The notes beneath the pieces are model-generated. The model had not been told where the DNA came from, did not search any database, and saw nothing but the letters and a program-made list of their open reading frames with translations. Made by a program: the position numbers and the translations under genes. DNA of 34,903 nt, from assembly GCA_003649715.1 (NCBI GenBank), contig QMSS01000001.1:1-34903 (forward strand), in the 5' to 3' direction. This DNA comes from Thermoplasmata archaeon. Lineage in GTDB: Archaea > Thermoplasmatota > E2 > DHVEG-1. Below, piece by piece: positions 1 to 3,289 of this stretch. Position 1 is the first letter of the stretch; each line of letters opens with the position of its first letter.

Positions 1-3000
1 ATGGTTTGAGTAGTGGGTAGTTGTCTTGTGTGTTGTTTGGTATGTTGCGGGGTGTGTCTATTATGCTGTCGCTGCCTGGTATGTTTTGGTTTGGTCCGTG
101 GTAGTTGTCTGGTCCTGTGTGGTCGTCCCAGTAGTTTCCACCAGTGGGGTATCCGTTGTCCCATTGGTTGTCTTGACCATAATCATGTGCGTTTATTGTG
201 TTGTTTATGAAGTTGTTGTGGTATATAGTATTGTTTATGCTCTGTGGTCTAATTAGTATACCTAGACAGTTGTTTATGAGATTGTTGGAGGATATATGTG
301 AGTATGCTGTGGAGTCTAGTACAATTGCACCATTGCCTTCTGCTTGATATGCAACGATGTTATGTATAAGGTTGTTTTTGATGGTGGTATTGTGTGTTCC
401 TTCTGTTGTAAAAACTCCTATTGAAGTATTGTAGATTTCATTGTTGATGATGGATGTGTTTGTAGATGAGGCAACATGTATTCCTGGTATGTCTGCAGTT
501 GAGTCGACGCTGGATATGATGCAGTCTGTTATGGTGACATTAGAAGAATTTTCGACATATGTGGTGGCAGAATTGGTATTCTGTATTGTGAAGCCGCTGA
601 TATTGGCAGAAGCTACATCATGAAAGTATATGGTGGGTGAGTTAGGTGAGGTGGGTTTTAGAATAGTGGTGTTTTTGTTTATTCCGAGTAGGGAGATGTT
701 TTTTCTTATTACAATGTTTTCTTGGTAGAGTCCTGGTGGTGTTATGAGGGTGTGTCCATCTTGTGTATTGGGGTTTTCTATGGCGTCTGTGATGGTGTCG
801 AATAGTTGTTGTGTGTTGTTGTTGAGAACGCCGACGATGATGCTTTTGTTTTTCTCGTTGTCGTAGTAGTATTGTTCAGCAATATTTGGGATGGAGGCAT
901 TTATTTTTATTGTATGGGATCCTGTTTCTGTGGTCCAGAGGAATCCTGTTTTTATTGTGGAGTAGCTTTTGATGAGGGGTATTGTTGTGGAGTTTACTTC
1001 TATGTCGTCTATGTATAGTTTAATGATGATGTTTGTTTCATCATTTAGTCCGTCATTGATGATTATGGTGGTTATGTTGATTGTTTCATTGTTTTTTGTG
1101 TGGTTTAGAGTTTGTATTTCTGTGATTCCTATGTTGTGTTCTGGTATTCCTGGTGGTTTGAGGGTTTGAGCGGGGTCGCCGAATAGGTGAGAGGATTCTA
1201 TCGTATTCATGAGGTGGTTGTACGGGGAGATTAGTGCTGCTGTTTTGTCTCTTGCCCATTCCTGCGCCATACCAAGCTTCCAGAGAGGAAGTCTTCCACT
1301 GGTTACGTTGAACATATATTCCCAGAAATATCCTTGTAATATTGGGTCATCGATGTAGTTCCCTAGCCCGGTATTGTATATACATGCGAATGCTAGTTCA
1401 GTGTCACTGTGGAATAGCATTGAATGAAGCACACCATCATCTGCTCCATCCATATCACCACATTTACAACCCATGTCTAGTAATAGGAATGGTTTTGTGT
1501 TATGATAGTTCTCCTCCCAATCATAAACATCTAGAGATTTCCATGGATTTGCATGTGCGATTCCTGATATGATTGTGCAGTTGTCACTGTTGATGGCGTT
1601 GCGTAGACCTGTGATGGCTTCGTTTAGTGTGCCGCCTTGCCAGCCGTCGCCTGTTTCTCCAGCGGTCCATTTAACGGAGAGGTTGAAGGCTCGTTCTGGA
1701 TGGTTGTTGTTCCATTGTTCGAATTTTTCAACAGCGCATTGGTCTATGATGTCGTGGCTGAGGCTTTGGCCGGCGTAGAATCCAGTGTTTTCGAGGTAGT
1801 CAGAGTCTGTGTTGTCGGCATAGTAGAAGCTTTTTGTCAGCCAGTTTGAGATATCTGCTGGTTCGTCGCATGGTATGCTTCCGCTGTACATTTCTGAGAA
1901 GTAATCGAAGTCGTTGTCTTCGCCCCATTCGTTGTCGTGGTCGCCGTTGAATGTTCCATCAAGATGTGTCCAATAGATATCTGTCTCCAAGGATCCGCTA
2001 AATGATGACGTCATTTTTCTTCTTTCGATTTTGCTTTCTGGGTTGTAGTCATCGTTGTCCCCTGCGATTAGTATGTATTCTGTTTCCCAGTCTGTGTATG
2101 CATCGCGGCAGAATTCGCGTATTTTGGCGGGTGTGTCGTTGAAGAGTGGGTCGGGGTTCCAGTAGTCGGGGCATGCTAGTATGTCTTCTATTTTGATTTT
2201 GGTGGCGGTGAGTCCTTGTTGTTCTTTTTTGTTTATGAGGTCTTCCCAGGTGTGGTTTGTGTTTGTGAGGTTGTAGAGTGTTTCTCTGACTAGTATTATG
2301 TAGTTGTATCCTTTTCCGTTGTTGTCGTTGGGGTTGCATAGTCCTCCTGGGTAGGTTGATTTTTTTTGGTTTTGGTAGTATTTTGTCATTTCTGGGTTTT
2401 TTACTAGTGTTTCTACCCATTTTTTGTCGTTGGTTTTGTTTGGTCTTAGGTAGGGGTTGGTTTTGTTTGTTGTTTGGAGTTGTATGTTTATTTGTATTTT
2501 TTTGTGGTAGAGTAGTTGTGCTTTTTTTGGGTTGTAGTCGATTGGTAGTATGTGTAGTAGTAGTATGGTGTATCCGTGGCTGTATTGTATGCCTTGGTTT
2601 TCTATTGTTTTGTTTAGTATTGGTTTGTTGAGATTGTATGTTTGTTGGTTTATTGTTTGTGTTGGTGTTTGGTTGGTTGGTGTGGGTGGTGGTATGGGTT
2701 GTATTGGTTTTTCTTTTAGGTTTATTCCTTGTTGTGTTGTGTTGATTGTTATGGTTTGTGTTTTTGTGGTGATTTTGGTTGTTGTTGTTTTTGGTGGTAG
2801 TAGTATGGGGTATGGTATAGCTGGTAGGTTGGGTGTTCCGGGTTTTCCGGTGGGGTGGGATCCTGGTATTTTTATTGTGGTGTATGTTTTGTTTTTTTGT
2901 TTTGTTTCTTGTAGTTGTGGTTTTGGTGGGTGTATGGTGATTTGTATTTGTTGTGTTTTTGGGTTGTATGTTATGGTGTTTTTTGTTGTGTTTTTTTGTT

Positions 3001-3289
3001 GTGTGTTGTTGTGTGTTGTTTCTTTTTGTGTGGGTTTTTTTTCGAGGTAGGTTTTGGTTGGGTTTGTGGTATTTGTGTTTGTAGTTTTTGGTGGGTCAAG
3101 TTTTTTTTTGGGATAGGTTGTATCTGGGGTTTGTTGTGTTGTTGTGGTGGTTTTTTGTTTTTTTGTTTGTGTTGGTGGTGTGGCTGTTGTGGTTGTTGGT
3201 GTAGTTGTTAGGGTTGTGGTTATTAGGATTAGTGTTATGGTTAGTGTTATTATTGTTGTTTTTTTGTTTTTTGTTTTGTTTTGTTTCAT
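1..3289 (-). CDS. Large secreted peptidase C25 (gingipain-like, clan CD) family surface protein. Order: signal/anchor, Thr/Pro/Lys/Gln/Asn low-complexity region with C25-propeptide-like segment, C25 catalytic core, CARDB-like module, NosD-type right-handed beta-helix. The 5' end is complete; the 3' end runs off the left window edge (at least 1096 codons). Absent from the supplied ORF track.
   Basis: Hand check of + strand triplets 2-4, 5-7 ... 3287-3289 found no TTA/CTA/TCA (reverse-strand stops) anywhere. ATG lies at 3289-3287, and an in-frame upstream stop lies at 3439-3437 with no earlier start codon. N-terminus is MKQNKTKNKKTTIITLTITLILITTTL. Motifs YILIAGDNDD, IYWTHLDGTFNGDHDNEWGE, CTIISGIAHANPW and PFLLLDMGCKCGDMD align with YVLIGGDEDV, IYYACLDGTYNYDGDDKWGE, YIINHLGHSWY and CFIYSQGCMAGGFD of ORF 21527..23806. 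The window-proximal end reads GNYWDDHTGPDNYHGPNQNIPGSDSIIDTPRNIPNNTQDNYPLL, typical of the end of a NosD/beta-helix domain. Confidence 0.8.
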   Translation of the reverse strand, partial: MKQNKTKNKKTTIITLTITLILITTTLTTTPTTTTATPPTQTKKQKTTTTTQQTPDTTYPKKKLDPPKTTNTNTTNPTKTYLEKKPTQKETTHNNTQQKNTTKNTITYNPKTQQIQITIHPPKPQLQETKQKNKTYTTIKIPGSHPTGKPGTPNLPAIPYPILLPPKTTTTKITTKTQTITINTTQQGINLKEKPIQPIPPPTPTNQTPTQTINQQTYNLNKPILNKTIENQGIQYSHGYTILLLHILPIDYNPKKAQLLYHKKIQINIQLQTTNKTNPYLRPNKTNDKKWVETLVKNPEMTKYYQNQKKSTYPGGLCNPNDNNGKGYNYIILVRETLYNLTNTNHTWEDLINKKEQQGLTATKIKIEDILACPDYWNPDPLFNDTPAKIREFCRDAYTDWETEYILIAGDNDDYNPESKIERRKMTSSFSGSLETDIYWTHLDGTFNGDHDNEWGEDNDFDYFSEMYSGSIPCDEPADISNWLTKSFYYADNTDSDYLENTGFYAGQSLSHDIIDQCAVEKFEQWNNNHPERAFNLSVKWTAGETGDGWQGGTLNEAITGLRNAINSDNCTIISGIAHANPWKSLDVYDWEENYHNTKPFLLLDMGCKCGDMDGADDGVLHSMLFHSDTELAFACIYNTGLGNYIDDPILQGYFWEYMFNVTSGRLPLWKLGMAQEWARDKTAALISPYNHLMNTIESSHLFGDPAQTLKPPGIPEHNIGITEIQTLNHTKNNETINITTIIINDGLNDETNIIIKLYIDDIEVNSTTIPLIKSYSTIKTGFLWTTETGSHTIKINASIPNIAEQYYYDNEKNKSIIVGVLNNNTQQLFDTITDAIENPNTQDGHTLITPPGLYQENIVIRKNISLLGINKNTTILKPTSPNSPTIYFHDVASANISGFTIQNTNSATTYVENSSNVTITDCIISSVDSTADIPGIHVASSTNTSIINNEIYNTSIGVFTTEGTHNTTIKNNLIHNIVAYQAEGNGAIVLDSTAYSHISSNNLINNCLGILIRPQSINNTIYHNNFINNTINAHDYGQDNQWDNGYPTGGNYWDDHTGPDNYHGPNQNIPGSDSIIDTPRNIPNNTQDNYPLLKP

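Follow-up and report, generated by a model that had tools for sequence, protein, structure and literature searches.

A contig-edge gene of a Thermoplasmata archaeon for a predicted secreted gingipain-family protease with an A+C-rich 5' region

Introduction

What is encoded at the left end of contig QMSS01000001.1 (assembly GCA_003649715.1) of a Thermoplasmata archaeon, where a list of open reading frames (ORFs) shows only short entries, and why is the 5' part of this locus written almost entirely in A and C? The window, that is, the whole stretch of DNA that we analysed, covers the complete contig of 34,903 bp. An earlier reading of the nucleotide sequence, made without database searches and called the sequence-only reading here, proposed that the reverse strand carries a long unlisted gene for a C25-type peptidase followed by CARDB and beta-helix modules. 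Our analysis indicates that this gene very probably encodes the N-terminal 1096 residues of a predicted secreted, multi-domain cysteine protease zymogen of the gingipain family (MEROPS C25, clan CD).

Proteases of this kind have been reported from related archaea. Zhou et al. 2019 (PMC6461988) described C25 gingipain-like genes in Thermoprofundales, several of them predicted to be extracellular, and found them among the most highly transcribed peptidase genes; the same paper cites earlier single-cell work in which these archaea were proposed to degrade detrital protein. The C25 peptidases of sediment Thermoplasmata are already well known, and the gene described here adds one more.

Results

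Read on the reverse strand from ATG 3289 to base 2, the translation runs through 1096 codons with 0 stops, and none of the plus-strand triplets of this frame is TTA, CTA or TCA. The sense strand is poor in T and hence in stop codons; we therefore evaluated the chance of such an open frame by shuffling the sequence 2000 times with the composition kept within 300-nt blocks. The shuffled sequences contained 47.2 in-frame stops on average and never fewer than 28, and the remaining two sense frames of the gene contain 70 and 29. The nearest in-frame stop upstream is TAA 3439-3437, and because the 49 codons that separate it from ATG 3289 include no ATG, GTG or TTG, ATG 3289 is the first possible start. 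The sequence-only reading had claimed a stop-free gene of at least 1096 codons with just this start and this upstream boundary, and had named as fatal any TTA, CTA or TCA in frame between 2 and 3287; the claim stands, its residue and codon coordinates are all exact, and the peptide motifs that it quoted are all present. It was also right that the position at the edge explains the omission, since the ORF runs off the contig end and the rule of the ORF list leaves such ORFs out. That list missed the gene, but public annotation has it: GenBank lists the identical protein of 1096 aa as RLF30089.1, "hypothetical protein, partial [Thermoplasmata archaeon]".

The short plus-strand ORFs rich in Cys, Val, Gly and Phe are shadows on the G+T-rich complement of the A+C-rich sense strand. 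An overlapping reverse-strand ORF of 157 codons in another sense frame (3096-3569) was considered as a gene and rejected, its product having no Pfam match above the cut-off. This product is of low complexity, with a second half rich in N, K and T, and the ORF is a by-product of the stop-poor A/C tract.

The assignment to family C25 is carried by the central part of the protein. When the core (aa 274-720) is excised, the hidden Markov model (HMM) of Peptidase_C25 (PF01364) matches it with 80.4 bits (cut-off 23) and E 1.9e-22, and the match spans profile positions 3-372 of 374. On the full-length protein hmmscan does not report this family even at E <= 10; evidently the HMMER filters discard the compositionally biased full-length sequence for this model. 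PF01364 is absent from the precomputed Pfam lists of the protease and of several close relatives, and the label "hypothetical protein" in GenBank probably reflects this failure of the full-length scan. The sequence-only reading had proposed to judge the domain by HMM hits of the whole translation; the C25 model is found with the core, but at full length the same test would mislead.

The predicted structure agrees with this assignment. For aa 101-720, an AlphaFold2 model based on 39 homologues reaches a mean predicted local distance difference test score (pLDDT) of 89.1 and a predicted TM-score (pTM) of 0.91. In a Foldseek search against the PDB the best catalytic matches are RgpB (4ief, 1cvr) and Kgp (6i9a, 4rbm), with E-values from 9e-12 to 9e-11, probability 1.00 and target TM-scores (TMt) of 0.58-0.62. 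Lower matches of the core are PorU, separases and CHAT proteases, all of clan CD. The core that had been proposed as C25/clan-CD from motifs is thus recovered by both profile and fold.

The two candidate catalytic residues of the sequence-only reading form a conserved pair. In an alignment of 40 sequences His579 and Asp605 never vary, and at least 90% of the sequences keep Cys608. BLASTP aligns the query segments SGIAH579A and DMGC608KCG to the His (GHS) and the Cys (QGC) of a second C25 protein encoded in the window at 21527-23806, and phmmer places the His of NHLGHS in this paralogue on NYTGH211G of RgpB and the Cys of SQGCMAG on FDVAC244VNG. Linked in this way from query to paralogue to RgpB, His579 and Cys608 are identified as the catalytic dyad, equivalent to RgpB His211 and Cys244; this equivalence is transitive, through the window paralogue, and not drawn from a direct structural superposition.

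Ahead of the core lies a gingipain-type prodomain. Propeptide_C25 (PF08126) is found in the full-length scan at aa 114-277 (E 1.4e-5, 24.7 bits against a cut-off of 22) and reaches 27.0 bits when aa 1-413 are searched separately. The prodomain of Kgp (5mun) is matched with E 3.2e-8 from the single sequence and 7.8e-16 with a profile, and Foldseek gives TMt 0.79-0.80 to 5mun and 0.72-0.76 to the prodomain chains of 4ief. The segment described earlier as propeptide-like is confirmed by sequence and fold alike. About 65 residues separate it from the N-terminal segment, in which residues 1-10 are rich in Lys and residues 13-23 reach a Kyte-Doolittle mean of 2.9, the maximum of the whole protein, as the earlier description of a K-rich n-region and a hydrophobic segment had implied. 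This region is a predicted Sec signal peptide or N-terminal signal anchor, with Ala36 as its guessed end; the corresponding position in homologues is taken by classical signal peptides.

Behind the core the chain continues into two kinds of beta-structured module. CARDB (PF07705) is found in the full-length scan with E 9.4e-7 and 29.4 bits against a cut-off of 22.7, and its sequence matches 2l0d with E 0.003. In the AlphaFold model of aa 714-1096 (pLDDT 92.9) this domain is matched by Foldseek to the Pyrococcus PF1109 structures 3idu and 2kl6 with TMt 0.74-0.79. The following repeats are recognised in the full-length scan as NosD (aa 862-1059, E 6.9e-18) and Beta_helix (aa 887-1034, E 6e-12), and the structural neighbours of the modelled beta-helix are GH87 alpha-1,3-glucanase, AlgE mannuronan epimerases, phage tailspike-type proteins and the pneumococcal adhesin PfbA. 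The NosD equivalog model TIGR04247 scores 57.8 bits, under its cut-off of 300, and nos genes (nosZ, nosFY) are not among the genes of the contig. The CARDB-like module of the sequence-only reading was therefore well placed, and its "NosD-type" repeats hold as a Pfam repeat family and a beta-helix fold but not as the NosD equivalog. The structure prediction that it had suggested recovers all four folds, those of the C25 core, the prodomain, CARDB and the beta-helix. The protein has 34 N-X-S/T sequons, compared with 21.3 +/- 4.3 in shuffled sequences, and they are densest in the CARDB and beta-helix part.

The visible protein ends in DNYPLLKP, and the motif aligned with it closes the first beta-helix module in three homologues of the same architecture, P0002, P0003 and P0015 (39-44% identity, 90-93% coverage). 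These homologues continue for 509, 407 and 414 residues after the motif, with a second beta-helix in P0002 and P0003 and with other modules and a C-terminal transmembrane (TM) helix in P0015. The frame is still open at the contig end, and the earlier claim that the product continues beyond the window agrees with the 407-509 aa by which the homologues run on. Exact searches of a metagenome collection with a 40-mer from the left end and a 43-mer from around the catalytic Cys gave no match, and the protein cluster of RLF30089.1 consists of a single member from a single contig. The features of the locus are collected in Table 1.

Table 1. Positions of the protease gene, its domains and 5' region, and the second C25 gene in the window
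Feature	Residues	Position	Strand	Basis or remark
Partial coding sequence, 1096 codons, start present, 3' end cut by contig end		2..3289	-	= RLF30089.1
K-rich n-region MKQNKTKNKK and Ile/Leu/Thr hydrophobic segment	1-36	3182..3289	-	Hydropathy
Thr/Lys/Gln/Pro-rich low-complexity spacer	37-100	2990..3181	-	Without counterpart in homologues
Gingipain-type N-terminal prodomain (Propeptide_C25)	101-280	2450..2989	-	Pfam, sequence, fold
Peptidase_C25 catalytic domain (clan CD, caspase-like fold)	332-708	1166..2296	-	HMM, fold
Catalytic His579 (CAT)	579	1553..1555	-	Invariant in 40 sequences; equivalent to RgpB His211
Catalytic Cys608 (TGT)	608	1466..1468	-	Conserved in at least 90% of 40 sequences; equivalent to RgpB Cys244
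CARDB Ig-like (immunoglobulin-like) beta-sandwich	723-800	890..1123	-	Pfam and model; occupies the position of the gingipain immunoglobulin superfamily (IgSF) domain
Right-handed parallel beta-helix (Pfam NosD / Beta_helix)	862-1059	113..706	-	Pfam and model
GNYWDD...D.YPL cap motif ending one beta-helix module	1051-1094	8..139	-	Homologue alignment
A/C-rich 5' leader, 82% A+C in last 80 nt		3290..3360	-	Direct reading
A+C tract, mean 85% on sense strand, peak 0.905 per 600 nt		2101..3400	-	Composition
Second, complete C25 paralogue, 759 aa		21527-23806	-	Peptidase_C25 2.7e-60, Propeptide_C25, PKD

The unit of prodomain and core is found at 79 loci in GTDB species representatives, mostly in metagenome-assembled genomes (MAGs) of Thermoplasmata/Thermoplasmatota, often as several paralogues per MAG; the Thermoprofundales MAGs M9B1D and M11B2D are included, and in such MAGs the C25 peptidases with a predicted extracellular location rank near the top of the peptidase genes in expression (PMC6461988). 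The C-terminal appendages of these relatives vary and comprise PKD, VCBS/FG-GAP, dockerin and CARDB domains, with Por sorting domains in bacteria. The tail of CARDB and beta-helix occurs in only 3 of the 119 listed relatives (P0002, P0003 and P0015). Searched by itself, the beta-helix module recovers 844 proteins at E <= 1e-10, and most of these are "parallel beta-helix repeat proteins" from Bathyarchaeota, Thermoplasmatota and Zixibacteria. Directly downstream of the gene for P0003, at 4776-7148 of locus L002, a separate beta-helix protein of 790 aa (NosD/Beta_helix and Golvesin_C) is encoded, and P0003 likewise has Golvesin_C as its last domain; it seems that adjacent genes for surface proteins exchange beta-helix modules by shuffling.

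Sediment bacteria of the Zixibacteria, Gemmatimonadota, Phycisphaerales, Glassbacteria and Ignavibacteria also carry the subfamily, with 37-45% identity; for the unit of prodomain and core, identities of 41-45% are recorded in these lineages. The copies at the bacterial loci L007, L014-L017, L019, L027, L049, L050, L058, L071 and L075 are no more distant than many archaeal ones, which suggests that this C25 subfamily may have moved between Archaea and Bacteria by transfer. The sorting domain PF18962 (Por, type IX secretion system) is found in some of the bacterial homologues, whereas the archaeal P0015 ends in a TM helix instead.

The second property of the gene is its nucleotide composition. 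The A+C-rich tract takes in the leader, the signal segment, the spacer and the prodomain and reaches into the first part of the catalytic domain. In the leader, from some 70 nt ahead of the ATG, and in codons 1-300, A and C make up 84-91% of the sense strand at each of the three codon positions; G accounts for 2-5% and T for 7-10%. The sole G-rich element of the leader, GAAGGAAGAAGAGGGA, is Shine-Dalgarno-like and ends 12 nt before the ATG. The A+C content of position 3 is 0.93-0.99 in codons 1-400, falls to 0.58 in codons 601-700 and is 0.73-0.90 in the CARDB and beta-helix part. Almost all codons are of the form NNA or NNC: Lys is AAA in 99%, Gln CAA in 94%, Tyr TAC in 81% and Asp GAC in 72% of cases, compared with 81%, 49%, 40% and 35% in the other 27 ORFs of the window. 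The two closest homologues, P0002 and P0003, have A+C contents of about 0.5 at every position and favour NNT codons, and in 766 kb of related loci the top 600-nt window reaches 0.705 A+C, against 0.905 here; a trait of the whole subfamily is ruled out by these values. The A homopolymers of the coding region, 9 at 3101-3109 and 8 at 3035-3042 on the reverse strand, fall in Lys-Lys-Lys codons, and the leader contains another run of 8 A; homopolymers of this kind readily lead to slippage in transcription or replication.

The effect of the bias reaches the protein itself, whose prodomain has been pushed towards T, K, N, Q, P and I. Residues 1-300 consist of 25% T, 14% K, 12% P, 10% I, 9% N and 9% Q, and V, A, D, E and G together make up about 7%. 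Where the prodomain differs from the consensus of the homologues, 46 of the 58 replacements are to T, N, K, Q, P, I or H and 5 to residues whose codons start with G, whereas the flux in the catalytic core is balanced (37 vs 35). At positions 1 and 2 of codons 1-300, compared with the nucleotides on which P0002 and P0003 agree, 63 changes go from G or T to A or C (G-to-A 20, G-to-C 4, T-to-A 21, T-to-C 18) and only 4 in the opposite direction. T-to-A changes are as frequent as T-to-C changes, which is not what simple deamination would leave, and an attack of this kind on the template strand is disfavoured on the same grounds. The substitution pattern looks like an avoidance of G and U as such. 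An origin by microsatellite expansion was likewise rejected, as Tandem Repeats Finder (TRF) gives nothing beyond weak low-complexity rows that overlap one another, and the tract extends over a domain that folds and has homologues.

A and C do not base-pair with each other, and the first ~900 nt of the mRNA consequently have almost no predicted structure: the predicted minimum free energy over this part is 0 to -7 kcal/mol per 150 nt, compared with -15 to -30 in the homologues.

A weaker form of the bias is shared by other genes. Position-3 A+C ranges from 0.37 to 0.84 among the genes of the contig, and about eight genes besides the protease gene prefer NNA and NNC codons (0.74-0.83) with normal positions 1 and 2. 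With the protease gene left out, the biases of position 3 and of positions 1+2 are not significantly correlated (Spearman 0.24, p 0.23), and the idea that the two are linked across the genome was rejected. High position-3 values come in runs of same-strand neighbours, for example at 7701-9286 (-), 16262-17994 (+), 19550-20341 (+) and 30491-33435 (-), which hold NifU and cysteine desulfurase; Dph2 and a RadB-like gene; aIF2-alpha; and PHO4, a metallophosphoesterase and an Rce1-like gene. Since biased genes occur on either strand, each time with the sense strand affected, a cause at the level of the transcript or of translation is indicated, and replication-strand skew is ruled out. Between the Rce1-like and metallophosphoesterase genes, at about 32690-32885 (-), the latter has an A/C-rich leader that ends in a clean GGAGG before a TTG start, which hints that leaders poor in G and free of structure are a recurrent feature of the genome.

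The contig is an ordinary archaeal housekeeping chromosome. Its genes encode HisRS, a PIN nuclease, QueC, a PTPS-family (6-pyruvoyl tetrahydropterin synthase) protein, NifU, cysteine desulfurase, NadA, an amidohydrolase, Dph2, a RadB-like ATPase, GINS51, aIF2-alpha, PAC2, SMC-ScpA-ScpB and PhoU/PHO4, among others. A mobile-element or accessory setting of the protease gene is ruled out by these neighbours, and the earlier description as the largest accessory gene of the window is not supported, because the neighbours are housekeeping genes and SMC with 1207 aa exceeds the visible 1096 aa. The paralogue at 21527-23806 is the more canonical C25 protein, has the usual nucleotide composition and shares 22-25% identity with the edge gene, so that two divergent gingipain-like genes stand on one 35-kb contig. 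In the 840-bp gap between this C25-PKD gene and SMC lies tRNA-Phe (GAA) at 24401-24475 (+), the sole RNA gene detected in the window.

Discussion

The closest well-characterised counterparts of the edge protease are RgpB and Kgp of Porphyromonas gingivalis (1cvr, 4ief, 4rbm, 6i9a, 5mun), which belong to the same MEROPS family C25. The module order is the same, with a signal, an inhibitory prodomain, a caspase-like domain in which His precedes Cys, an Ig-like domain and adhesion modules, and so is the fold, to judge from catalytic E-values of about 1e-11, prodomain TMt values of 0.72-0.80 and the equivalent dyads. However, the structure-based identity is only 14-15%, and neither sequence nor profile search connects the catalytic domains. 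Gingipains use type IX secretion, which the archaeal host of the edge protease does not have. In the edge protease CARDB is the Ig-like domain, beta-helices stand in place of the haemagglutinin/adhesin (Cleaved_Adhesin) domains, and a Thr-rich spacer precedes the prodomain, unlike in gingipains. The C25 peptidases of Thermoprofundales/MBG-D and sediment Thermoplasmata (PMC6461988) belong to the same subfamily, with 38-47% identity over prodomain and core, and are likewise predicted to be extracellular and to occur as several paralogues in one genome (two in this window); the edge protease differs from them by its rare CARDB and beta-helix extension and its unique A+C-only 5' region. The CARDB domain resembles PF1109 of Pyrococcus furiosus (3idu, 2kl6; TMt 0.74-0.79, root-mean-square deviation about 3 A, Pfam CARDB above the cut-off), although the identity is only 15-16%. 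With NosD, which acts in nitrous-oxide reductase maturation, and with generic beta-helix proteins the edge protease shares the Pfam repeat families and the beta-helix model; in contrast to NosD, the repeats are here the C-terminal appendage of a protease, with a TIGR04247 score far under the cut-off and no nos neighbours.

Our results supply the order of the domains, their fold and the conservation of the dyad; the mechanism is modelled on RgpB and Kgp. By this analogy the N-terminal signal segment would direct Sec export, and the Thr/Lys/Pro-rich spacer, probably glycosylated, would precede a prodomain of ~180 aa that would fold onto the catalytic domain and keep it latent until cleaved off. 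The caspase-like domain would then cut peptide bonds as a Cys/His endopeptidase with the His579-Cys608 dyad, and the CARDB beta-sandwich would fill the structural role of the gingipain IgSF domain. The right-handed beta-helix is a fold used by polysaccharide-binding and -processing proteins, and one or more such modules may hold the enzyme on a polymeric or glycan substrate or on the cell envelope. Judging from the literature on the lineage, detrital protein would be degraded outside the cell, and the resulting peptides would be imported and fermented by the archaeon.

Several points weigh against the assignment as a secreted gingipain-type zymogen. In searches of the solved gingipains with phmmer (core) and hmmsearch (40-sequence profile) only the prodomain was matched and not the catalytic domain, and as sequence searches reach the prodomain alone, the link to the gingipain catalytic domains rests on the Pfam HMM, the fold and the transitive alignment. 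The signal was called from hydropathy alone, and its h-region is unusually Thr-rich. The C-terminus, with any determinant of anchoring or release, lies beyond the contig. If the protein were mainly a surface structural or adhesion protein, or a carbohydrate-active beta-helix enzyme, then the C25 domain might serve only self-processing or, in the manner of PorU, the maturation of other surface proteins, and not proteolysis for nutrition. The beta-helix is indeed widespread as a stand-alone extracellular module (the 844 proteins mentioned above), it resembles glycan-active enzymes, tailspikes and an adhesin in structure, the C25-family sortase PorU is among the Foldseek matches, and the glycosylation sequons are many in a group of archaea whose surfaces depend on glycoproteins. 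However, the PorU match is weak (E 1.8e-3, query TM-score 0.20) next to those of RgpB and Kgp, the gingipain-type inhibitory prodomain is typical of secreted degradative zymogens, and most members of the subfamily bear other tails (PKD, VCBS or CARDB only), with the beta-helix confined to three of the listed relatives, so that the conserved unit is the protease. We consider a mainly structural role improbable.

One could also assume that the gene is a decaying or hypermutated relic, in which strand-asymmetric mutation, through template deamination or a deaminase toxin, overwrote the 5' third and the zymogen no longer works. The extreme A+C content at all three positions of codons 1-300, the nearly one-way change at positions 1+2, the direction of the prodomain replacements and the lack of anything comparable in the 766 kb of related loci are what such a process could leave behind. 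Nevertheless, 1096 codons contain 0 stops where 47 are expected, Pfam and the Kgp prodomain sequence still pick out the prodomain, and the catalytic dyad and 58 invariant core columns are kept. The near equality of T-to-A (21) and T-to-C (18) does not fit transitions or deamination, and the sense-strand position-3 bias of about eight genes on both strands points to the level of the transcript or of translation. Decay of the gene is very improbable in our judgement. The reading as a predicted secreted C25 zymogen remains the one that we adopt, with a high degree of confidence.

The cause of the A+C-rich 5' region is a separate matter. In E. coli, CA-rich RNA without structure gives a strong boost to translation initiation when it lies beside the start site (PMC5934652), and we tentatively prefer the explanation that the gene may be tuned for high, structure-independent translation, on top of a Thr-rich composition prone to glycosylation. 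Two points stand against this preference: it is extrapolated from bacteria, and it leaves the ~1-kb extent of the tract, as well as the dip and renewed rise around codons 601-700, unexplained. In its wider form, the G/T-poor tract of ~1.3 kb (the leader and codons 1 to about 400) would be an adaptive feature of the transcript that provides a permanently unfolded message and a high rate of translation; we hold this to be a possibility, and a rather doubtful one. The mRNA might also be shielded from structure-dependent or G/U-dependent RNases, and selection would have had to be strong enough to recode a folded prodomain as T, K, N, Q, P and I while its fold was kept. If this were true, the gene would be a clear natural case of selection at the RNA level overriding the choice of amino acids across a whole domain.

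Conclusions

Two lessons for annotation follow from this locus. ORF lists without edge ORFs can conceal the largest genes of short metagenomic contigs, and full-length HMM scans can overlook the catalytic domain of compositionally biased or multi-domain proteins.

For the biology of sediment Thermoplasmata the gene would provide one more secreted C25 protease, with a rare CARDB and beta-helix tail, for the breakdown of buried protein; existing ideas on carbon turnover in sediments are confirmed and unchanged. The A/C-only 5' region is a genuine curiosity. It is the one feature of the locus that could teach something new, and it may show how far pressure at the nucleotide level reshapes a domain that still folds.

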